36,359 nucleotides of DNA from assembly GCA_021432655.1 (NCBI GenBank), contig MU271640.1, forward strand, positions 1-36,359. Reading direction: 5' to 3'. This document shows positions 1-27,361 of this stretch, in pieces. The DNA is from Atractiella rhizophila. Lineage: Eukaryota. Position 1 is the first letter of the stretch. Each line of letters opens with the position of its first letter. The position numbers were made by a program, and so were the translations under genes. Below the pieces are notes generated by a model. It saw only the letters and a list, made by a program, of their open reading frames with translations. It had not been told where the DNA came from and did not search any database.

Positions 1-1884
1 AAGTACGACCACAACTTACCCAGTACATAGCTCCTGCAAGACCGTTGCTCTTTATGTAATTTGTCTTGGTGACTGCGGTAGCAGGGTCGTCGTAGGAAAC
101 GAGGACACGGTTGCTTCCATAAGAGTAAGCGCCGACTTTAGACGTGTCGTCGGTAACAGTTTGCCCAGAAAGGGGAAGCGCCTTGTAGTCCCAGATTCCG
201 TTTTCCCAAGCTACCCAAATCATAAGCTCCGCGCTAGGAGAAGAGGTTTCGACACACATCCAGCTCCTACACCATTGTACGCTTGATAGAGACCGTTCGT
301 GTCCTATGACAGTATTTCAGATACCCTGTCTAATGGCGAAAGGTGGACAAGGCTCACAGCGAAAGCACGGCCGTAAAGCGGGAGACCCATGATGATCTTT
401 GAAAGGGGCGCTCCATGGCTAGTGTAGTAGCTGAGTGCAGCCTCGGTGGAGAATCCTTCAACGGGGATGAGTAATTAGGAATGTCAATGGAAGAGGCGAG
501 AGCACATACCGCTGGGGGTTCCACCGTAGAGATTGGCCTGGTGGTCCGAAACGGTAGACCACGAACCAGACTATGATGGAGAAGTTAGTGCAAGCGCGAG
601 ATAGGACGGAAAGGCATACATAGTCGTACGCCATCAAGTTGATGAAATCCAGAGCTGTTGACATCTGGGCAATGTTAAGATAGGTGTAACCAGACGGCCC
701 AGCTCCGACAGCCTATTGTAGCATAATTAATGTTTTGTTTGACACAAACAAACAAACTTACAGCAGTGAGGAGATATGGGACGCTGTCCCCTTTAGCAGC
801 GGCGTGAGAGTTCAAGGCAGTTCGGAGCTCCGTCTGAGTGAGGATTTAGCTGCCTTTCCATCTACCAGCAAGAATACGCACAAGCAAATCAGCAAATCCT
901 TGTCCCTGAGCAGTAGAGGTCGGATATTCATAGTCGATATCAATTCTGTTGAAGATGATCAGATCTTACCACGCAAGAGAAGTAGGGAGCTCACCCATCG
1001 AAACCGCAGTCCTCCATCAGGGTGATTGCGGTTTGGATGAAAGTCGCCCTCTGTATCATCATGGGCACAAGTACAATAGAAGTATCAGGAGCTTACAGCT
1101 GAGGGATTCGTGACGAAGTTGAAATGCCCGGCCTGGCCGTACGTCCATCCTCCAACTGAAAGCAAGGTCTTGAGGCCACTGTAACAGTGATGAGCAGTTT
1201 TCGCGCATGATGACTACTACATACCGGTTGGCGAGCTTGAGCTTGAATAACTGCTTGATGTTTCCTGTTAATAACTGCTTAGTGCTGCTTACCGTTCGAT
1301 TTGAGGAGTGGGATCGTACCATATACATTCGTGCCCACATCATTCCAAGAATCGCCGTCGTCTACAATCAACGTGAGCAATAACCATGAAGCAGAATAAG
1401 GAAACTGACAGTGAAGATCGAAATCAGCGTAACTGTCGGCCGATTTCAATGCACCAGTTGTTCCGTCGCTGCAGACAATTGGATTCGTAAGAATCAACGT
1501 GGAAGCGATGGCTGGGCACAAACCAATCAAAGAAAGCGTAGAGAATGTGCGTCAATTGAGACGCCGGAATGCTTTGGGGCGGGAAGTTGCGTCCAGTCGT
1601 ATAGACCCCCCATTGGGCGAAGTACCCCATGTTTATTTTGCCATTTGCGCTGGCAGAAACCTCTTGTATGGTAGCGAAGCCTCCATCAAGTGTGTAGTTG
1701 AAGCTGAGTAGAACAAAATCAGCAAGACACTACGTAAAACACACAAAATCGCATACTGAGGATTGGGCTGGATAACTTCAACGGTGGTGTTCCTCGCGAA
1801 CCCTGCTGGCCTATCCATCGAAGGCGTCGCTTGAACAGCGATCAAAGCGCTGAGAAAGGTGATGAACGACGTGGTAGACAACAT
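1..1884 (-). CDS. Secreted GH18 chitinase, multi-exon; 3' end lies beyond the left edge of the window
   Basis: Signal peptide MLSTTSFITFLSALIAVQA at 1884. Spliced exons give GYFAQWGVY..RNFPPQSIPASQLTHILYAF, NIKQLFKLK, LLSVGGWTY, catalytic FDG|IDIDYEYP (DxxDxDxE), LDFINLMAYDY, MGLPLYGRAF, VSYDDP and GLAGAMYW. An intron is open at position 1. Confidence 0.95.
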
Positions 1885-12667: not shown

Positions 12668-13888
12668 GATGATTGCTTCGTATGAAAGTAGGACGAGTAA
12701 CAGTGCCGACTGGTGCTGAAAGATTTTGTGTGTGGTAGGTGCTCTGAGCAAGTAAGGATTGCTGCCTCCTTTTAACCAGCCAAAAACCTGCACATTCCTG
12801 AGGAATAGCTGCGGATGCCAGGTTGCGCAGCCTTGTGTGACTGCGGTACTGCGACCGACTCACTAACAAGCAAGAGAGTGTTGCAAAGTTCGACCAGACG
12901 AATGTGAACATTCAAATACTCAGAACTTCCCACAGTGTATGCATCAACTTCACGCGAGCACAGGCTACAGTATTGTAGCCTGAAGCAAGTGAAGGTTAAT
13001 AGAATTCGTTGCAGTCCGATCGAAAGGTCTCTTCACTTTGCTAACGATGGCGAGCATAGGAAGGCTTTATTGCGCTTCGGTGACTAATCTCTGCTTTCAT
13101 GCAGTATCGCCTAGTTGTTCAGCTTGACAGGTCGGAAGAGTCGTCCTAGAGAGAATAAATCAGTACATAGTGCAGAATCAATACTAACAGGAGAGAATGG
13201 ATCAGAAAGGTTTTGATCTCATCGTCCAACACCGTAAAGGTGAAGGCTCTCGACGAGCTGGGTTATTAGATTTCAGGCGCATGGCGCCTTTTTTCATCAC
13301 ATCACCGCAGTAAAGCTTTGGAGGAAACAAAGTGCTCACTTATTCATTCAGTTTGACTCTTTCCACACTGTGATAAAGTTACTTCTTCTCATGTTCTTTT
13401 CGTCGCAACCATCATTCCCTTCACTTTCCTCCATTGCCGACATGCACGAAGAGCATGATTTTATCACTTTCACAATTTGTGGCGGCATTTTCCGAAAAGG
13501 CAATCACCGACCCAGCGCATTCCTTTGAGAAGCAACATGAACATCATGAGCGTATGAAGGTCCATGAACTATTGCCTCTACAGGTGGTAATATACATAAC
13601 AAATGGGGATGGGCTGAGAGTGTGGCCCTTTGTTATCTTCAATATTAGTAGTCGCAAGCGAAAGGAAATCCTATGAATTTTCCGTCCCCCCTCCCATCCT
13701 TTGATTCGAGCACAGTCAACAAATCACTCCACATCACCACAGCCTGTGGCATTACTTAGAGAGCTAGTTGAGGGTCTAGATCGAAAGGAAGACGTACACC
13801 AGAAACTCCGAAGAAGAGACTGGGGTATCCATACTTCAAATCATAACAAAGCAAGAAACTCTCTCTCGACCTCTCAGTGTTATCGTTC

Positions 13889-16666
13889 CTAGCCCTCACT
13901 CGGAGCGTGGTCAGGTCTAGAAGTAGTTCTTTGCCTCCTCAAACCAGAGGGAGGCAAGGTAGGAAGAGTTTTCGTCCTCGCGGGAATGGAACCGTGTCCC
14001 GAATCTGAAGCCGCACTTCTATTCGGAGAACCAAAGGGCGAATCGAGACTTCCGGAACCTCCGATCCTTCTCTCATCGTCGCTGAATCCCATCGCTTGCC
14101 TGTATTGCCACTCGTCCACTCCAAGAACTGTGTTCCTATGATTGTTCTCAGGACGTGGAGGGCCAAGGCGGCGGGAGAAGTAGTTAGTGCCGCTGTTGGG
14201 GTTTGCATTTGGAGGATAGTTCTGGTGGGTTGAATTGACCGTATTGATGGTTCGAGTTGAGTTGGAAGGAGAGACGGAGGGGATGACGGAGTCGGAGTTG
14301 GGGCTGCGGAGGGGAGTTTTCGATAAGAGGATTGTTGATCGACCAGCGTTTCTTGATACGATTTTCCTTCTTCTCGATAACTGCTGGGGCTGTGAGACGA
14401 TTGAAGAAATGTCATAACGTTGACATGGACATTTCGAGGTTGATTGAGGAGGGATGACACGGGCACAAACATAGAAGAGCACCAATCAGTCGATTTCCCC
14501 ACGTCTGATAAGAAATGATCTCTGACAAGAGTCAACAACCCAAGACACCGCGAAGAAGAATCGAAAGAAGAAGGCCGACATGATGAGGTGAATGAAATTG
14601 GCAAAGTGAAATAAGAGAGGACGAGGGAAGAAAGGAGAAATAACGGTACAGGTAGCTACGTAGCTAGAATATATGAACGGATCCACTCCCTCCAACGAGA
14701 CTGGGGTAGCATAAATTAAACAGGATGTTTTGGTATTCGTGTCGTTCGAGGGAGGAAGGGAAAAGTCGAATGCAACGGGACGAGGAAGAAGAAAAATGAA
14801 AGGGCTCGTCAAGGTTCTAATATATCCCAACAAGACGCTGAGGTTTTCTCTCTGGAACCCGCGCTTTGAGCCAATCCAGCAGCCATAAAAGCAAGAACGA
14901 ACGAGACCGTTGATCGCAAGTGAACTCACCCTCGGGATTGAGGTGAGGGACTCCTTTCTGTTGATTGCACCTTCGAAGCCATCTCCGCCATCTGGATGGC
15001 GATACTTCGTCAGCAATGGTGACAGGATAATTCAGAGGGTAAGGACTAACTGGCTGATCCTCCAGCGGGACTAAAGAGTTAGAAGTTGCCGTCGACGTCG
15101 TCTGGAGCTCGTTTGTGTATTTGCTCGAAGACTGGGCGTCCAGATTGAACCACGACTTGCGTTGCATCTTTGTGAAGTCGTAAAGATGGAAGCTGCAATT
15201 CAACAATTCATTAATGTCAGGAAACGAAAAAGACGCGGCACGGACTTTTGCTCCATTGATCGATAGTCAGCTGACAACTGATTGATGTCGAGGTTCGGGT
15301 TGCGCTTCTTAGCCTTGAGGGGATTATCTTCGAGCAAGAGTTCCTCAAGTTCGTGTGTTGCGTCAAAGTTAGCTTTCTTGGACTGTTGAATGGAAAAATC
15401 CGACCAAGTCCACCCGCTTAGCTACTCCGTTAAACGGCTATAGAAGAGGAGATACATACATCAGGTTCGAAAGGGGGAACTATCTCCTTTCGTTCTAATG
15501 CGACCCAGTCGACTCCCTTGAACCATGGATGGCGTTTGAGGTTTGCCAGTCCGCCAGTTTGCCTCGTCCCCAGTCGCTTGTTGATGTCCCGCTCCAGGAA
15601 CTGGGCGCAAACCCACACGCTCGGTCAACCGTCTCAACACATCGAGATGTAAAATGAGAAACGTACACCTCGAATACATGATGCAGATTCCGGTGTGATC
15701 ATCTCTCCGCCCGCCCCATCCCTTCCCACATCCTGTACATCTGCCATCTTCACTGACTCTTTAAGGATCGAGTGCGTCAGACTGCTGTTCGTCTTGCCCT
15801 TGAATGGTCGTTTGCCGTACATGAGCTCGTATGCGAGGACACCAAGAGACCACCAATCAATGGTAGAAAAGTATCCACGCTTTGCGAGAATCTCGGGAGC
15901 TAAGTTCGCAAACCGCCTCGGTTGTCAGAATTTTGATGCGTCAAGGGGAGGGTGAAGTGAAGGGAGGACTGACCCATGTATGCCATACTTCCTGCAATAG
16001 ATGTAAGCGGTTTTCGTTCGTTAAAATGAACAGCGATGTTGAAATCGGTCAAGTGGGCATGACCCCGTTCGTCAAGAAGAATGTTGTCCGGTTTGATATC
16101 CCTACACATTTCCCGTCAATTCTGGGTCTACAGCAGTAAAGGCGGTGCAGGGTGGGAGTGAACGAACCGGTGGACGATTCCCCGCTCGTGCAGGTAGTCC
16201 AAAGCCACGGCCAACTCCATGACATAGAACCTCACACGCTCCTGACTGAAGAGGCCCATCCTATCCAGATGAAACCTCAAATCTCCTCCCAACATTAAAT
16301 CCAAAACCATGAATAAATTCTCATCATCTTGAAAGGCATAACGCAAGTTGCAGACGAAAGGACAATCGATCTCTTCTAACAGTCGGCGTTCTTGAATGAT
16401 ATTTTGAACTGCGTGTTGCTTCGCTATTCGAGCTTTATTGATGTACTTGAGAGCGTAGAGCTGTTTTGTCTGTTTGTGCTGAACCACTCGAACCTAGCGA
16501 TCCATCCGGTACCCGTCACTCCACCGATCCCTTGGCTCCAAAAGCAAAAGAAGTGACATACCTTTCCGAAAGCACCTTTTCCTACTGACCGTAAGAGATA
16601 AAAGTGCCAAAGGTCGACGGGAGCGTCGAAATCGATTTCCTCCGGTCTACAACAGAGAGCACCCAT
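13889..16666 (-). CDS. AGC Ser/Thr protein kinase, YANK/STK32 family
   Basis: MGALCCRP lipidation-type N-terminus, [62 protein letters not shown] (DFN typical of YANK), [19 protein letters not shown]. The last exon 14389-13889 is inferred across a 540-nt intron and is less certain. Confidence 0.92.
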
Positions 16667-16864
16667 TCTTGATGAAGATTATCGGTATGCCTGGAGTGTG
16701 GGTATTGGGGTTGTTGGTGTCTCAAGGAAAAATAAAAAATAACGAAGAAGTGTAGATTACTGAAACTGGAAGGTAATAATGTAATAAGGAGGGAGGACTA
16801 CTTAGACGTTGGCGACGCTGCGTCGTGGTGGAAGAGCGAAGAAGTTCGGTTCGGAGGAGCGTTG

Positions 16865-16889
16865 NNNNNNNNNNNNNNNNNNNNNNNNN
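16865..16889. other. Assembly gap (25 N)
   Basis: Run of N. Confidence 1.
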
Positions 16890-17053
16890 TGCTACTTTAG
16901 TCATAACTACCATAGAATTCGACCGACCGACAACATTCTCGTTGACAATCCTAGCTGTTGTACGTATTCGGGCAGAGGCGCTATCTATAGTTTCGTAACT
17001 CTAAGTAAAGGTAGTGTTGGGGTCGAGGACTAGTACGTTTCTACTGCCGAGTG

Positions 17054-19342
17054 CCGTTACAAAGGTAAGTATAGTCTGCACTGTCGACGTTTCCGGAATG
17101 AAGGGTCTTCTAGATAGTAGGGTGTTTTATTTAGTCTTTTGTTCTCTCTACAATACCATCTTTCCATGGTTTCTCTCGTTGCTGAGGGAGGCAGCGGAGG
17201 TCCTTGACCCACCACAGGTGAGGTCCACACCAACTCTGTAGTCGCATCCTCGCGAACTACCATAGTTTCATAGGTCCACATCGGTAAAACTACGACTAAA
17301 ACACGACTAGACCCACCCTCTAAACCTCCTCCGGAAGCAAAATACGAAAATACGTTCAGTTAGCCCTACGCGAACTAGCTCTAACAAACGAGCATAAACT
17401 TAACACCACGTACTGATTTCTTCATGATGTTTTCATGGGTTGGTGGTGAAATCTGGAGAAAGACCGGTAAAGTGCTACTCGCACGCATAAAGAGGGAAAA
17501 ACATAGTGAATTAGAGTGCCTAGCCGACCTACAAGTCCATTAGTGGTTGGAAAAGTTCGCGTTAAGGCAGAAGCAGAGGTGGCAGCGGCACTGTCGGAAG
17601 CCGAAGAGGTAGCAAAAGCTCTTCCGGTGTTGGCGAAAGACCCTGTTGGTGTTGGCCCCACATTCGGAGAAGGAGACACATGAAAACACTCCTGTCTTCC
17701 TCGACTACTTCCCTACCCTTGTCTTTGTCACCTTCCTATAGTCTGTGTTCATACACCTCCGACTCCTCATCTCGTCTCGTCTCTTCGTTACCTTAAAAAA
17801 CTCGTAGCGACTAAACAAATTTGCACTCACCTACTACCAATGAACTGCACCACACACGAGGAAAGAGAGCAGAAGGAGGCCCACCTTTGTCTTCCACAAC
17901 AGCATTGGACGGAGCCCAGTAACAGAAGATACTCGCAAGATGGAGTGTGAGCATGCGGATCAAACGCGCTTCGTAGACGAAACCAGCCTTCTCGTCTACA
18001 AATACACTCGAGACTTGACAAAAAGAATCGAGAAAGCCGAAAAGACGGTAAGTCTGGCAATTCAAACGGGAGCTGTAATAACGCTACCGTACTTGCCTTT
18101 CTGACTCTCACTCTTCGACCGATCGTAAGTCATGAGAAATTTCGCTTCGGCACATCGGCACGGTTTGCCTCTATTGGTTTTTAGCCAAGCTCCAATGTAG
18201 TTGAGCAAACCTCAATTTTTGATACCTTTTTTCGACAGTTAGTATACATGTCGTGATGCCTAACTCTTTATACTAGTCGAGTCGGCCACGAAAGGGAGGG
18301 TTTCGCGACGTTCGAAGCCCATACCTTGCAACCGCACTCCCCGGTCGCAAGAGTCGAGTCGCAAGCCAAGGGGCCTACTTGGACTTGATTCGTGAGAACC
18401 CTCACCGAAGTTACCGTCGGCGAAGCCTGGGCGCGCCGCACTGATAACGAACTGTAAGCCACACTCGCAGCCACGCTCGCTTTTAAAACGTTCCTCTCCC
18501 ACTCCACTTTCCTCGGCAACCAGGCTCCGAAGTTATGCACGAGTCCAAGAACACCTGGGTGAGACAGTGTGGAAGTACAGTACAACACACTGAGTTGAGT
18601 TCCCTATATTTTATCACCCCGTAATACCGGAGAAGATCTGGAGAGTAAACAAAGACTCAATTCTTGCCTTTTTTTTACCCGCTAGCGATGAAGCTCTTAG
18701 GAAAGAACAGGGAAGGATTCCTACCTTGATATCGCCTACTTCTTCTCTTCTGCCAGGATTCCGTCCGTTAATACCTATTGTATGAGTACAGAAAATCAGA
18801 GCGCGTCAAGCCGCCGCACCAGCCGAGTCGGGAACTCTCGAATCGCTGGTCGAGAACGAGAAGGGGGAGAAGAAGCGAACTGCGACCGAAGGACTGATGT
18901 GGCTGCTTCGCGGACTGAGGTTCACACACGCTGCCATGGCTCGATCGCTGCAGAACAAGGGCGAAGAGCTCACGGAGAGCTTCACCAAGGCATATGAAGG
19001 AAGCTTGAAACAGTTCCACAACTTTGTCGTCAAGGGTGTCTTCACCGTATGTGTTCTCCCTTCTCTGCATTTCGTCTCCTCTTTTCGCTCGCGATATTGA
19101 TGCGATCGATGATGGAGTAGTTGGCCATGAAAGCCTGCCCATACCGCAAAGACTTCTACGCAAAGCTGGGCTCAGACCAGGCGAAGGTCGAAGAACAGCT
19201 CGGTGCCTGGCTCGACGCTTTGGGCAAGATCATCGACCACATGGAGAAATTCTAGTTCGTCCTTCCCACTCTCAGTCCTCTTCCCAAACAAATAAATGAC
19301 CCTGGTTCCAGCCAAGACGGAGGACACAACAAGGGTTTCTAG
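17054..19342 (+). CDS. Glycolipid transfer protein / HET-C2 homolog; exons 1-2 lie in the mirrored block
   Basis: Backward reading 17286->17169 and 17112->17054 gives MATPGYFDTIKRSYADVSTTPGVDTTQFLEATEGVVALF|DLLGSKAFAAVTSDMNGNIA. Normal plus strand from 18792 continues KIRARQAAAPAESGTLESLVENEKGEKKRTATEGLMWLLRGLRFT..AYEGSLKQFHNFVVKGVFT|LAMKACPYRKDFYAKLG..QDGGHNKGF*. Confidence 0.93.
17476..17771. CDS. QCR9: Cytochrome bc1 complex subunit 9; readable only as the plain complement left-to-right (minus strand once the block is corrected)
   Basis: Complement exons 17476-17481, 17538-17660 and 17724-17771 with GT..AG introns give MS|VITNLFKRNSVFVSTVAVTAFGFSIVFEKATTAFWDNHNRG|KQWKDIRHKYVEAEE* (58 aa). 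Confidence 0.93.
18676..18780. CDS. 5' fragment of a LanC-like protein gene in the mirrored block
   Basis: Complement left-to-right gives MGDRYFENPFLSLPKDGTIADEEEKTVLRQAIMDN, with TATAAAA at 18606-18612 in the same reading. It aligns by eye with the 12667 exon. Confidence 0.6.
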
Positions 19343-19782
19343 ATTCTCAGCCAGAAGAAACCAATCGCATTGTCATAGTCCAAATGATCAAGGTGTAGAT
19401 TGCATTTCCTCCTGATCTTCATGATCAGATTTCGTTCAGGGTTCAATGTGGATAGTGAGTGGGAGGTAAGGGTTGCAATTCATCATCAGTGAAGCAGTGT
19501 AACGATTTTCGATTCGATTGAGGATTGAGGATTGCATATTCACGATTAAAGAGCAATAAAGAGGTCGAACTACCTAGTTATTTTGAATGTTAACGATAAT
19601 AAGAGAAGGAATCTCGAGAGGCGAGGACGCGCCAAGAATCCAAAGCGAATGTCGCTCAAAGCCCAAAGGACAAATCCGAACCCAAAATCCCCATCGTCAA
19701 TCAGACCGAACAGACAACTCCACCTGCATCCTTCTTCTACCAACTTTCATCTGATGTCACAACCTTCTCCCACCATCTTCAT

Positions 19783-21081
19783 CTAATAGTCTTGCACCTC
19801 CGGTGCCACCCCTCTACCCTGAACCGGCCTTGGATAAACCGGTGAGCTCATGAGGTTATCTCTCATCCTCGGATCGTAGTCGTCCCTCGCCAAATCCGTC
19901 CTCACGAATCCATTGCCTCCGCCGACGGCACCATTGCTCAGTGGCGACGGGGAGAAAGCAGAGAAAGACTGGGACAGGGAGGTGGAATGTCCCCCTCCAT
20001 TTCCATAGCTAGAACCGTGACTGCTGGTCGAGAAGGGGGTCGTGGAAGGCATGGGAGGAGGGGAGGGGAGCATCCTCCTCGAACCCGTCGTAGAAGACGC
20101 TCGGGAGTGGGAATGGGAAAGTGACTGAGATTGGGAATGGGAGTGAGAGTGCTGATACTGTGACAGGAGGCTCGGCATCCTAGAAGGAGGTGAGGGGGCG
20201 TCGTCATGAGCGAGTGGATAAGGTTGAGAGGAGGAGGTGTGAGAGAAGGAGGAGATGGCCGGGGACAGAGCTCGCTCGTACACTTGCGCGGTTGAAGGGC
20301 CGTTTGGGTTCGGCAGTGCGCGCATGGGCGAGGGTTGGATTGGGGTCGAGACTTTGGAGGGAGCGTTTGGTTCGGGAGGAAGACGACGGATGGAGACGGA
20401 GGGAGAGATGGCTGATGCCGGGGCGGAGGCGGGGACAGGTAGGGCGGTCTGGAGCTTCGGGAGGGAAGTAGGGGAGGGAACGGTTGTGACATTGCCGTTG
20501 CTGTTCGTGGTGGGAAGGACGGGAGTGGGTTTGGTGGAGATGGGAAGGGGAACGGTCGCGCCTACAGCAGGCGAGGCATCGGGAGAAGTGAAAGCGGAAT
20601 GGTCGGTGTGGACCTCTTCCTCTCTCACCAACGCCTGCAGCGAATTCGGATTCGGATTCTCATTCTCGAACGAGAATCCATCGACGGCGTCTTGATCAAG
20701 CGCTTTCGCCTTGCCTTTGTCCTTCCTCGGAACGAACACCACCTCGCTCTCCTCACTAATGCTCTCCTCGGCTCCACTCTTTCCGCTCTTGCTCCTCCCT
20801 AGATCTGAACGCGGCATCGAGCCGTTCCTCCCCAAGCTAGTCTGACCGGCGTGCCCCTGGGCGCCGTGAGAGTCGCGGGAAGGAAGGCTTGAGTTCCTCC
20901 CCAAGATGGATCGTGGATTCGAATCGTTCCTTCCCAGACCAGCGCCGGGAACGAAACCAAAAGAATCCACGGATCTAGCCAAGGACCCTGTCCTGCTGAG
21001 GATCTGAGACTTATCAAATCCTCTCCCTCCGCTGTGTTCCCTTCCCATGTTCAAGTTGTTCTTCACACAGCTCCTCGACAT
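19783..21081 (-). CDS. Pro/Ser-rich low-complexity hypothetical protein; possibly the 3' part of a larger or truncated gene
   Basis: 432-codon ORF, GC-rich relative to its flanks, with LGRxxS repeats, Pro-rich tracts and an HS repeat. No recognisable domain. Confidence 0.65.
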   Translation of the reverse strand: MSRSCVKNNLNMGREHSGGRGFDKSQILSRTGSLARSVDSFGFVPGAGLGRNDSNPRSILGRNSSLPSRDSHGAQGHAGQTSLGRNGSMPRSDLGRSKSGKSGAEESISEESEVVFVPRKDKGKAKALDQDAVDGFSFENENPNPNSLQALVREEEVHTDHSAFTSPDASPAVGATVPLPISTKPTPVLPTTNSNGNVTTVPSPTSLPKLQTALPVPASAPASAISPSVSIRRLPPEPNAPSKVSTPIQPSPMRALPNPNGPSTAQVYERALSPAISSFSHTSSSQPYPLAHDDAPSPPSRMPSLLSQYQHSHSHSQSQSLSHSHSRASSTTGSRRMLPSPPPMPSTTPFSTSSHGSSYGNGGGHSTSLSQSFSAFSPSPLSNGAVGGGNGFVRTDLARDDYDPRMRDNLMSSPVYPRPVQGRGVAPEVQDY

Positions 21082-22077
21082 TTGGAGGGTGGGTTAGACT
21101 ATTTTCAGTTTCGGTGATGATCAAGGCGGGCCGTATCTCCCTCTGGTCGATCATGCATCAGTTGCACCTTCCAAAGAAAGTGGTTCTCGTGCTAGCCTCG
21201 ATAGCTGACTAAGGATCCATATTTTGATATCTTGTTCATCTTAAGCAAGTTCACCGAGGAGCGATAGGTAACTCCTTGAGGGGATGTCTTTTTATTCTCA
21301 GTCAAAGAGGACGCTTGTTCTGAAGCGTACGATAGATGGTAGACACCTTCAGGTCATCACCAAAAATTTTTCTGTCACAATCATCTCATCTGAGCTGTGA
21401 ATTCCTGAAGAGTACAAGATCGAACATACACTGCGCCGCGTGCAAACCAGAAAACCTGCCAGAAGAAAGTGAAAAAGTTCTGGCTACATCATGAACACGA
21501 ACCAGCTCCAAACTCAATGTTGAGCGAAAAGGACGTGAGAGAATCCTGGTAAGTTACTGTACAACCTTCTTTGATGAAAAGGATGAAGGAGACGTTGTAT
21601 CTCACCAAGAGGGGATCGTTCCATTCGAGGGATTGTTGCGAATAAAAATTGGCTCCCTGACAGAAGTTATCAGGATTATGACTGCTCAGTTCCGCAATTG
21701 GGATGGCGAGTCAGCATATTTCATTCTACCAGCTACTCTTGCAATTCATTATCACAAATGAGACGGTTATGATAGGAGAGGACCAGAATTAAAAGAAGGG
21801 ATTTTTGCGAGAAAACACGTGAAGGTAAAACACGTAAAACCGAGGCACAATTTGCAATCCATTCTTCAATCCTTTGTTGACTTCATCAATTTACTGACAC
21901 GACTGACTTGGTTTATCGTAATCAAAAAAGAAGAGGCGAAAGAAATAAGTTATGGATTGCAATGCCACATTTTGACGCTTTTCCTTCAACAAAACAGGTA
22001 ACCGTTACAGAAATCGACGACAAGTAAGTGGAGACACACGAAGGAACTAAAGAAAAGACATTAGGACGACGGCGTGC

Positions 22078-24979
22078 TCAGATTTCCAGTTCCGTTTTGA
22101 TGTCGCCATTACTCGGATTGGGAGGATGAGGGAAAGTGGCAGGGAGGAAAGCAGCAATTTCATCTTCTATTCTTGAAGGTCCAGAATGTCCGTTCGTCGA
22201 GGGAAGGAATACAGCAATGTCTGTCGAATTCTGATTCTGTTGGGCTGGCTGAGAGCTGGTTGATTGGGCATGGAGATCGGTATGATATCCGTTTTGAGGA
22301 GCTGTAGGCTTGATGTCAACATCCATACCATTCCGCCAAACTGTCTTCTCAACAGTTACCATAACCGTCCTCTTCTCCAGCACCGTATTCCCTTCTTCGT
22401 CTAGCCCGAACCTCTTCGTAACCGTGTTATTTGTGATGTTCGTTGTGACGGTTGCTTCTCTTGCACCAAGATCTTGCCTTCCTGGATCTACCCTCATCTC
22501 TACCCTCTCGGTATGTTGTACCGGTAAAGTCTCCCTCGATATTATCTCCCCTTCATGTGACGCTTTCTTTCCCTTTAGGGCCTTCTTCTTCGCTCTCCCT
22601 CCTTCCGCCGAATCTTCTATCACACTCAGGCGTCTCTTTTTCGACAGCGCTTCAGACACCACCGACCCTTGACGCTTCTGAGCGGAAACTGTAGAGGCGG
22701 AGCGACGCCGTTTATCAACTTCGAGATCATCTCCATCATCATCATCTCCCAACGCGTCCACGACAAGATCCTTGAAATGTTGGACGAAATCCGCAGGGCT
22801 CATCGTCTCCTCCTCCAGCTTATCGTGAGGCACAGACTCCCTCGCAATCCTTCTCTCGTTCGCACTCACGTCCGTCGCTTTCTTGCCATCCAAACGTCGG
22901 ACCTGTTCGAAGAGGAAACGAGCAAGGTGCTTCAAACCTTTGAGCACTCGAACGTTGATGTCGGCTGGGAGAGGGGCGAGAGGATCGGTCTCTTTGCATT
23001 TGCGGAGGCGTGCGGCGTACGACAGCGCTACATACCAACAAAGACGTTCGTATTGAGGGAAACGGAATTTCTTGGGCACCTTCGTGACCACCTCAATATC
23101 GTAGACTCGCATCTGCGTTCCGATGTTGAGACTAGCATAATTATCAGTGGCTGAGTTGTAGAGACAGCTTAGAAGTTACCTGTGAAGGAAGTTACCACCA
23201 ATGACGAGAGAATCGGTGGGCGTATACTATGAAGATCATGAGCGATTGGTTCCAAATTAATTGACTGAAGACAGACGACTGCATGAATCCATCCTGTAGG
23301 AATGATAGCTGTTGATCCTTGAGGCAGATCTAATCTGTAGACTTTGTCGACCTCACCACCTAGCCAGCTATTCTCTTGTTGTTCGGTGCTGGAGCTCCAC
23401 TTCTCGTACTTCTTCAAATTTTCTGGAGTCGGTCGGATGAAATAAAACACTTTTGACCCTCGAAGAATATGGTAGAACACCTGAATAAAGGTCAACGCGT
23501 ATCATGCAAGTAGATGAGCAGAATCGTACTGAGGATCCGGCGAGCTTTCCGTCCAGTTTCTGCGCTTCGGCGATTTTCGAGTCCGGTTCTTCCTACGACG
23601 AGTCTGACCCTTCCTACAAACCCAACTCACACTTTCCAGGCAGAGAAAATCCAAAACCCCCCATACCAACCAGCAGATTACCAAGTTCCCATACCCCTAC
23701 TGGGGGGAGGTTTAATTTCTCGAACGTCGCCGAATCTTTCTACACTTTCAGTGTGTAGACTACATAGGTCAATGAAAATACGATAGATGTAGCAAGTAAA
23801 AACAATAGCCCATCGGACGTGCAAAAAGAAATTGGACCAACCGTAAGTACCACTTTAAGTTTTACATAGGATTAGAAAAAACTAAAACACCGTCGACGTG
23901 TTGCACCATAGTAACCAGCACACAGTTACTCTTAGGATTTCTGAGGGAACTATGGCAGCTATTCCACGCTTTCAGAGAAGACTTCAGTATGACCTATAAT
24001 TGGTTGTTACCCTGTCACCATGACGAGCGGGACGAACCTGAGGTAGGGTCTGGAGTTTTAATGGAAGGCTCGTGGTGGTGCTTTCAGTCGTGCTTTACGC
24101 CCTTACGGAGTCTAGTTGATAAGGTTGAACTTAGTTCCTTAACTCAGGCTGGGTCCAGCGACCCAGTTCGACAACCTCTTGAGTTGCTTGCCTGCGTCTT
24201 TGCAACAATGGTGTCTAGTCGATGGAGTCTCAACCTTCACCCTCCTACCTCTTCCCGACCTCCTAACCTAAACCCCTGCTCCTAAGTCCCCTTTGTGGTT
24301 GCCACTATGTTTTTTCCACCTGTTCTTCCTTCCTTCGCTCTGGCTTTCGCTCCTACCTTTTCTACTGAAACTACTCCTACTTTCACCCTACTCGGTGGGT
24401 TAGCAATAGTCTGTTCCTTACTTCCCTCAGCCCTACCTCAACGGCGTCTTGAACTGTCACGCTCTCCAACGACTCTAACAACCATACGAAAATAGACCGT
24501 GTAAATAAACAGTTACTGACCAAGTGGCGTCCGGGACTGTGAGGCCATCTCCATTAATAGTAACGAACTACGATCTTTAATAAATTAACGAAAATCCAGT
24601 AACTACAACGTTCGGTCTGACCTGACTTTCTGACCTGCCAACCTGCGACCCGTGTTATGATGTTGCTAAGCGCTGGAGCTCTGTTTTAGGCTTTACATTA
24701 GTCAGATCTCCAATCACTCAGTTTCGATCCTCTCTTTTAACTTTACGGCCTTGGGCAGTCCAAGCAAGCAGGAACTTACGTCATCCTGTGGTATGACTTG
24801 GGATCAATCCTTTAACCTGACCCAGTGCTTGAAGACCGGACTTCTGGCTGCACCGGGTCCTGTCATGGGCTTCCAAGTTTTTATAACGGAATACTCGCAG
24901 TCGGTGACGACCTGTCATTCAATAGAAGGCGAGACGACTCAGGTAAGACTGTGAAGGCGTCCTAACCGTGTAACTGAAG
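22078..24979 (-). CDS. JHD1: PHD + JmjC histone demethylase (KDM2/Jhd1); 5' half in the mirrored block, start codon in the gap
   Basis: Complement of 23542-24979 gives WVECE|SCTTWYHWSCV..K|WYCSPC (PHD), LTVREVAEIVG|PDTPVE|VIDVASQ, IRNVISLEVS, LDWVTNFWP..YPKVQKYCLMSVSHCWT|DWHIDF. The normal minus strand from 23541 continues AGSS|VFYHILRGSKVFYFIRPT..IPTGWIHAV|YTPTDSLVIGGNFLH..VPKKFRFP. Confidence 0.95.
23542..24979. other. Mirror-reversed segment (reversed, not complemented); probable assembly artefact
   Basis: The plain complement encodes a run of spliced JHD1 exons. Its last codon (TTC, 24977-24979) joins exactly to GCC starting at 23541 on the minus strand. Confidence 0.97.
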
Positions 24980-25146
24980 NNNNNNNNNNNNNNNNNNNNN
25001 NNNNNNNNNNNNNNNNNNNNNNNNNNNNNNNNNNNNNNNNNNNNNNNNNNNNNNNNNNNNNNNNNNNNNNNNNNNNNNNNNNNNNNNNNNNNNNNNNNNN
25101 NNNNNNNNNNNNNNNNNNNNNNNNNNNNNNNNNNNNNNNNNNNNNN
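24980..25146. other. Assembly gap (167 N)
   Basis: Run of N. Confidence 1.
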
Positions 25147-27361
25147 GCTGAGAAGGATCTATTAGTCGCCCAAAGTGAAGATACATCTTTCAGTTCACTC
25201 TCAAACGCCTTTACCGCATTGCACCTCAAGTCTCCATCACCCCAAGACCAAAAGAGAGAAGATCCCACCATTGGATACAAGGAGCTTGGAGACAGAGAAA
25301 CGGCATCTGAGTCTTTAACACTCTCAAGCTTTGATCATGGCACGATTTTTAATGCAAACACAAGGGACGATGCAGCCGCACTTACCTTACCCACCAGCCC
25401 ACGCACCGCCGTGATCTTCCAGCCTTCTTGTCTCCTTCACAAGTTCTTGCGTTCTTCAGATCCCGGAGACGTGTCTATGTTTCCAGAAAGACCTGAGCGG
25501 TTACGTGCGATCAAGATTGGAACAGCCGCGATTGTAGGAAGATTGCTTGCTTCAGTTTCAGCGGTAGATTTTCAAGGTACCAAATGGTCGGAACACCAGG
25601 CAGGTGACACCATAGACAGCCTTTCTGCAGGATTGAAAAATCTTGACGTCGCTGAGGGAGCAAGCAAAAGCCGAAAACGGAAGTTTCTAGACATGATTGG
25701 AGTTCAACAACCGTTCGACATCCTTTCGTCTCCTCGCCTCACCTCTTTCCGCGATCCCGCTCTTCTCTACGTCCACCAAGGCCTAAGTACCGGCATCGAT
25801 ACTACAACTTCGAAGGAACACACGTCTTATCCATCTCAACTTGAATCTTGGTGCCTCAAAGCACCAGCCTCCGCCCCAACCTCCTCAACACCTCACGAGC
25901 TCGAAATTCCTCCTTATCTCCCTTCCGGAGATTTATATCTGGCTAGATCCTCCTCTCTTGCCATTCGCGGTTCGTTGGGGGCGATGGCAGACGCAAATGA
26001 TTTGGTTTTCTCACCTGAGTCCACGCATGATAAGAGCTTCGTTGCTGTAAGACCCCCTGGCCATCATTGTGGGGAGAGCAATCCCCAGGGATTCTGTTGG
26101 GTGAACACTGTCGCTTTTGGCATTGTGGATGCTTATATGCGACATGGAGTCAACAAAGCCATTATTTTTGATATTGACTTACACCGCGAGTCTTTTTTTC
26201 GGACAGAGCTAAGCAAACACGCTCATTTCATGATTATTTAGATGGAAATGGAACGCAAGAGGTTGCTTGGGAAATAAATCGACGATATACTCAAGCTGTT
26301 TCGACTGCAAAGAAAGGAACACCAAAGAAAGGGAAGGAAGACACTCCCAAAAGTGTTCTGCAGGTCTTTTACGGCAGCTTACATGACATCAATTCTTACC
26401 GTGAGTCTATTAGCGCTGCTCAATATCCTCCGTTAACAACGTTTATAGCGTGTGAAGCTGGGCTGGACGAATTTGTCATCCCTGCATCCACAAACATTTC
26501 TGGAGGGCCAACAAACCAGTACATATCCAACGTTCACCTTGAGCCGTACAAGGATGCGAACGATTTCTACGAGCGTCTTTATCCTACGTATTGGGCAGGT
26601 TTGGGCGGGAAAGCTTTGGAATTCTTACAGAAAACAAACACAACAGAGTTGGACAAAGTTGGAATTTGGATAAGCGCTGGTGCATTATCTCCTTATTTCA
26701 CTTTTATGATTGCTGACACTGATGTGTAGGCTTTGATGCTTCCGAATTTGAGATGGACACAATGTCTCGCCACAAAGTAAAGGTACCCACCTCTTTCTAC
26801 TCCAGGATCGCTAGAGATACGGTTATTCTTTCGCACACCATACCTACCATTTTCTCCTCTGCTGCGAACTTTAGCCAGGCATCTCTCAAGCGCAGCGCAC
26901 GACGGACCGCACCACCCTCTCAAGAAACAAAACCTTTTCGTCGTCCCTCAATCATATCTGTGCTAGAAGGTGGCTATTCTGATAGAGCGCTTACTAGCGG
27001 GGTTGCAAGCCTATTGCAGGGATTAGTCTGGGAGGAGGTTGGAGGGTCGATGGATGAAGAAAAGGAAGAATGGTGGGCTGCGAAAGAATGGCTGAAGCTC
27101 GAGAAGGCTTGTGCTCCTGCCCATGAGGAGAATGGAGACACGCCGAAGAGGAAAGCGAGGCAGGTGAAGAGGGATGATTGGGTTGAGTATGCGAAAGCTA
27201 TCTTCGCGGAATTGGAGAAGGAGGTTAGCGAGACGACGGGAATGATGAAGGATGAGCTTGAGAAGGAACGGCCAATACAAACACCTCAGACCGATAAACC
27301 AGTTGCGTTCCCCGTCAAGAAGATTCGATTGGTTCGAAAGCAAGACCAATCACAGTCATAG
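25147..27361 (+). CDS. HOS3: Fungal Hos3-type histone deacetylase; start codon in the gap
   Basis: Frame is open from the gap edge. ERPERLRAI, LPSGDLYL, VAVRPPGHHCGESNPQGFCWVN, DIDLH|HGNGTQ, YGSLHDINSYP|CE, ISAG|FDASEFE..MSRHKVKVPTSFY, SVLEGGYSDRAL. Confidence 0.92.

Follow-up and report, generated by a model that had tools for sequence, protein, structure and literature searches.

Two blocks of a scaffold from the fungus Atractiella rhizophila are stored as plain string reversals, that is, as genuine sequence written backwards and uncomplemented, each of them directly beside a run of Ns. The window, by which we mean the whole stretch of DNA that was analysed (36,359 nucleotides, positions 1 to 36,359 of contig MU271640.1 in assembly GCA_021432655.1), is eukaryotic, intron-bearing sequence with two such runs, gap 1 of 25 N at 16865-16889 and gap 2 of 167 N at 24980-25146. 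Block 1 lies to the right of gap 1 at 16890-18785, its right edge falling within 18781-18785, and block 2 (23542-24979; 1438 nt) lies to the left of gap 2. Both blocks are almost certainly true basidiomycete genomic sequence that was string-reversed in place, by scaffolding or gap filling, between the contig core and the remaining Ns. The phenomenon is a data artefact, not biology, and its biological novelty is nil. For block 1 the pattern is far beyond chance in three independent tests, based on proteins, composition and sequencing data. That this block runs backwards without complementing was the original prediction, made from the letters of the window, and glycolipid transfer protein (GLTP) homology, a k-mer reversal score (LLR) and the contigs of four sequencing runs all agree with it.

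When block 1 is read from right to left without complementing, it supplies the missing 5' part of a GLTP gene, all parts of which are assigned to the plus strand. Exon 1 (17169-17286) has its ATG at 17286 and is 100% identical (E 2e-26) to residues 1-39 of P0268, a full-length GLTP of 198 aa that is annotated on another contig (32111 bp) under the same species name and whose source names it as glycolipid transfer protein. Intron 1 (17113-17168) is 56 nt long with GT..AG ends in the reversed reading, and exon 2 (17054-17112), again read right to left and uncomplemented, is placed by a spliced contig of run X3 and by the gene model. The first 164 nt of intron 2 (16890-17053) follow in the same direction from a GTGAGC donor at 17053, and its last 6 nt are GTACAG at 18786-18791 in normal orientation, where contigs of runs X1 and X2 align from 18786 onward. 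The expectation that this intron starts at 17053 and runs to 16890 was borne out, while its completion, which had been put at about 18782-18791, is rather at 18786-18791. Exons 3-5 (18792-19046, 19121-19254 and 19312-19342, the last including the stop codon) are in normal orientation, with spliced joints from 19046 to 19121 and from 19254 to 19312. All four introns are GT..AG, with lengths of 56, 170, 74 and 57 nt. The five-exon model with exons 1 and 2 taken from the reversed text encodes 198 aa, identical at 198/198 positions to P0268, which upholds the right-to-left reading of the first two exons with their GT/AG sites. Exon 3 matches basidiomycete GLTPs (best E 6.7e-32), all homologues carry PF08718, and through its 198/198 identity to P0268 the hidden gene shows full-length similarity to the GLTP / HET-C2 family (PF08718), including the N-terminal helices. 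An exact 31-mer of exon 3 had 0 matches among metagenome contigs.

Homologues of GLTP distinguish clearly between the two readings. In the reversed-string reading only, 113 of the 120 listed homologues give an N-terminal HSP (E<1e-3) at 17301 to 17042. As written, an HSP starting in the first 45 residues is seen for 6 of the 120 listed homologues; these all fall at 18717-19064, on or just upstream of exon 3, and touch block 1 only in its last 69 nt. More generally, neither strand of block 1 as written matches the tested proteins by tblastn. A chromosomal inversion or a misoriented contig would likewise have two sharp edges and genes that are unreadable in line with their flanks, but an inversion gives the reverse complement and stays readable on one strand, whereas here neither written strand matches. 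A true inversion was therefore rejected: the opposite strand as written is unreadable, with matches for 0/47 homologues of the JmjC protein described below and N-terminal GLTP HSPs absent except in the last 69 nt. The tblastn searches of both strands as written thus agree with the earlier observation that neither strand gives sensible genes. Mirror repeats, which can form H-DNA, are short and have both arms present. They share with the blocks a symmetry of reversal without complement, but here the sequence is 1.4-1.9 kb of ordinary genic DNA, and a forward copy of block 1 or block 2 is absent elsewhere in the window.

Block 1 had been thought to hide parts of three genes. The GLTP gene can be verified, but it is the only one of the three that can. 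The remaining 1.5 kb, from 18785 to 17287 in the reversed reading, contains 3 further ORFs with a codon-usage score above 4, as against 0 in the text as written, which are weak coding signals, together with a tract that is rich in C and T and resembles a promoter, and what may be the first exon of a divergent gene that extends into the gap. No tRNA was found by aragorn in the written or the corrected text. A search of the window as written against Rfam returned a single borderline match, remote from the blocks, to the C/D-box snoRNA Afu_304 at 13198-13304 on the minus strand (35.4 bits; gathering score 35).

Block 2 was found at the next gap, as had been suspected when it was proposed that other gap flanks may be affected. 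The 3' part of a gene for a putative PHD/JmjC demethylase lies in normal orientation on the minus strand at 22081-23541 and corresponds to about residues 341-778 of P0121, a protein of 778 aa on a 44605-bp contig that is 99% identical to the query exon and for which precomputed domains PF00628, PF02373 and PF17811 are available. Most of the remainder is in block 2, which, read left to right and complemented but not reversed, accounts for residues 39-340 of P0121 and with them for its PHD finger. At the level of alignments, residues 39-334 were recovered on this complement-only reading by HSPs running from 23575 to 24915 (71-100% identity), and the minus strand as normally read gave residues 345-778. 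Block 2 would thus carry a PHD finger and the beginning of the JmjC region of a protein that resembles histone demethylases (JHD1/PHF8-like), an assignment made via the domains of P0121. Matches inside the block were obtained for 46 of 47 further homologues in a reversed-string database and for 0 of 47 in the text as written. Among possible starts of the block at 23541-23544, only 23542 restores P0121 residues 335-344 across the edge.

The reversal can also be seen in composition. The k-mer composition of a genome is preserved by reverse complementing but not by reversing, and this property is the basis of a reversal score, the log ratio of P(k-mer) to P(reversed k-mer), computed for k=5. Block 1 has an LLR of -167.9, compared with a mean of +163.6 (sd 33.7, minimum +74.1) for 272 controls of the same length (z = -9.8); turned round, it would score +167.9, near the control mean. 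Block 2, with its start taken at 23543, has an LLR of -115.2 against +124.7 (sd 30.1) for 287 controls (z -8.0). K-mers in both blocks follow the genome's reversed spectrum rather than its normal one. Long negative stretches of the k-mer profile occur at block 1 and at one other place only, left of gap 2, and the best-scoring segments in the window are block 1 (208.8), block 2 (136.0) and a third of 28.8 that lies on a normally read exon. The turning point of the profile at the right edge of block 1 is at 18790. Within block 1, the sub-stretch 17750-18250 has an LLR near 0 (-2.9), and there the reversal is supported by missing contig cover only. The score parts reversed from normal sequence by 8-10 sd at 1.4-1.9 kb, so that whole assemblies could be screened without reads.

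Two further dips of the profile were considered as candidates and rejected. A third reversed block at 1-250 was set aside because the dip falls on a normally read exon of a GH18 chitinase and is noise: in this exon, which is in normal orientation, the score dips to about -26, and the segment 3-189 scores 28.8, the noise level. The exon itself (2-316, minus strand) encodes the C terminus of a GH18-type chitinase, an identification made by eye on the basis of motifs. The left flank of gap 1, where the LLR falls from 16739, was rejected as reversed because X1/X2 contigs align up to 16864.

For an independent view of the region 15500-26500, the window was compared with four sequencing runs, X1 and X2 (one sample), X3 and X4, in the form of Logan contigs and not raw reads. 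The contigs show what sequence the organism carries, but the runs differ from the window by ~1%, may come from other strains and need not be the reads from which the assembly was made. The runs richest in 16890-24979 contain only 0.45, 0.43 and 0.31 of its sampled words, and runs X5-X24, each with <0.13 of the sampled words, were left out. Depth was zero in all four runs for the bins wholly inside block 1 (16968-18435) and normal on both sides, the two edge bins of the block also including normal flank. Depth was likewise zero in all four runs for the bins at 23574-25041, which comprise block 2 and gap 2. Data matching the text as written were accordingly not seen in these runs. The loose ends of contigs at 18786, 18792 and 23480 match the reverse-only reading and no other. 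The reversed text continues into its flank without a break, with single-base precision at 23542 and an uncertainty of 4 nt at 18781-18785.

It had been anticipated that reads or transcripts would span from the reversed version of block 1 into its right flank, and the contigs do so: those of X1/X2 cross from 18786, and in X3/X4 spliced contigs connect exon 3, from 18792, with the reversed exon 2. In X1/X2 the loose end that precedes 18786 is the reverse of 16919 to 16890 at 28/30 letters, with 2 substitutions, and the spliced contigs of X3 and X4 before 18792 are the reverse of 17083 to 17054 with 0 and 4 substitutions, respectively. Read-level letters cover only 30 + 30 positions of block 1. 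At the block 2 junction, an X3 contig with its loose end at 23480 gives the same reading as the protein alignment. Between 23543 and 25147 the X1/X2 contigs comprise 1714 letters, compared with 1603 in the window, and therefore about 276 letters of gap 2 are still missing. The other flank of each gap is normal up to the first N, X1/X2 contigs ending at 16864 and starting at 25147.

These contigs also bear on the edges of block 1, which had been placed at 16890 and 18781. The left edge at 16890 is sound, directly after the 25-N run that ends at 16889, whereas the right edge appears to be off by 4 nt. The X1/X2 contigs pass from 18786 directly to reversed 16890 and leave no space for 18782-18785. 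A right edge at 18785 is the more parsimonious and more likely one, because the X1/X2 junction then costs one substitution, as opposed to a 4-nt deletion under 18781. The four letters may nevertheless be a strain indel, with the true right edge at 18781.

Could the DNA of the organism truly carry the blocks as written? In support of such a biological reversal stand the text itself and the fact that the runs did not sample the window's own strain. However, strand polarity bars a pure reversal, and inverted DNA that is rejoined is the reverse complement. In addition, two genes that look essential would have been destroyed, each of them precisely at an N run, and the text as written has zero cover in four runs. 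The chance that the organism's DNA carries the blocks in this form is vanishingly small. In line with this, uncomplemented reverse repeats serve as a chance control in a preprint that treats them as having no known biology (10.1101/038380), and reversed, uncomplemented decoys are used as a null in benchmarks (Dfam, PMC3531169; 10.1101/038380). The blocks result from the same string operation as these decoys, and such text yields no homologues, as was the case for the blocks as written, but decoys are produced deliberately and are not submitted to databases as genomic sequence. A phrase-based literature search found no description of a fault such as the present one, but only deliberate decoys and unrelated uses of the terms.

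The segment between the two gaps has a further irregularity, a join without N at 21006-21008 that no run supports. Beyond 21006 all four runs leave the window and continue with identical letters that none of its readings contains, and one X1 and one X2 contig, from the same sample, connect 16864 to 21008-21171 via 429 other letters. The join cuts the 5' side of a gene for a Ser/Pro-rich protein (19783-21006, minus strand; ORF as written 19783-21093). Loose ends behind 21006 keep the Ser/Pro-rich frame open in all four runs. The model for this gene on the window's own contig, P0169 (344 aa), begins at an internal Met at 20817, and the first 105 residues of its relative P0170 were found in no reading of the window. 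P0170 and P0268 are together on the 32111-bp contig, and P0121 is on the 44605-bp contig. It looks as if 16890-21007 is a piece of another locus that was set between a kinase gene and the JmjC gene, but the break at 21006/21008 may instead be a real strain difference. Two other contigs under the same species name, of 32111 and 44605 bp, carry near-identical copies of the window genes, which suggests redundant or alternative-haplotype scaffolds in the assembly.

Such a misplacement raises the question of whether the blocks are merely pieces from elsewhere that were also reversed, in which case turning them in place would not give the true local sequence. The apparent misplacement of 16890-21007, with the X1 and X2 contigs that connect 16864 to 21008 through 429 letters, and the annotation of the GLTP and Ser/Pro-rich genes on a different contig (32111 bp) from the JmjC gene (44605 bp) would fit this account. 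Against it, contigs run from 18786 to reversed 16890 and from 23541 to reversed 24979, and both genes are restored without a frameshift, and so we regard it as highly improbable. Reversal in place remains the preferred reading: it restores two ordinary genes, the exon chains of which, GLTP and JmjC, cross the edges in frame.

A further account would leave the deposited scaffold correct and have the reversal introduced after the public record, by later data handling or as a planted control, and any string operation could give such a pattern. The annotation is at odds with this. On the window's own contig, recorded with the window's length of 36359 bp, the GLTP gene is represented by P0171, a 141-aa 'glycolipid transfer protein, partial', which starts at 18786 and is 100% identical to exon 3. 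It consists of two residues from the intron end at 18786 followed by the equivalent of P0268 residues 60-198, and is without the 59 N-terminal residues. Because P0171 starts at the edge of block 1, the fault was already present in the annotated sequence, which argues against later corruption. P0169, with its internal Met, is on the same contig, and the full 198-aa GLTP was called on another; as the partial P0171 sits on the window's own contig, the annotators could not read exons 1 and 2 either. Corruption after deposition is consequently very unlikely, although somewhat less so than the misplacement of reversed pieces. The comparison of P0171 with P0268 (141 aa versus 198 aa) also bears out the expectation that annotation of this assembly would be truncated here.

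We therefore return to a fault of assembly. A software error during extension of a contig into the adjacent gap had been proposed, and it is supported by three observations: both blocks abut N runs, the text as written is without cover, and the reversed text joins the flank. Flank extension would have partly filled each gap, leaving Ns in both, and the fill string would then have been written out in reversed order for either direction of extension. At gap 1 only the right flank is affected and at gap 2 only the left, and since these are opposite flanks, the fault is independent of the direction of extension. PBJelly, as described in the pertinent part of its publication, extends flanks into gaps, leaves residual Ns, counts runs of 25 or more N as gaps and associates 'overfilled' gaps with scaffolding errors (PMC3504050, English et al. 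2012). The window resembles such gap reduction in having a 25-N remnant beside a seemingly misplaced segment. It differs in that reversed output is not described in that part of the account, and the connection is no more than a lead.

The blocks amount to a concrete, correctable error in a public fungal genome record, and they are of practical use for the quality control of databases. The damage on this scaffold extends to at least three genes: GLTP (annotated at 141 aa and not 198), the Ser/Pro-rich gene and the PHD/JmjC gene, in which the N-terminal 340-odd residues are unreadable (about residues 39-344 being inside block 2). Truncated proteins spread into protein databases, and reversed text, because it is without homologues, looks like novel DNA in scans for unknown sequence. 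The fault is probably systematic, with partly filled gaps throughout the assembly, and perhaps in others from the same pipeline version, carrying a backwards flank. If so, many genes would be truncated or missing in annotation, kilobases of 'orphan' text would be held in databases, and a simple k-mer reversal score would find all such flanks.

Comparison of the four runs with the window over 15500-26500 also revealed many listed positions at which all four share a letter against the window. When all differences are counted, A>G is the commonest class in each run, with 31-40 cases per run. It is the window that stands apart, as a haplotype or strain that has diverged or through errors in its record. 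To the left of gap 1, a gene for a Ser/Thr protein kinase is located on the minus strand at 15430-16678, with its 5' end near 16732, and its three introns (15900-15973, 16101-16166 and 16492-16559) are confirmed by spliced contigs of X3/X4.
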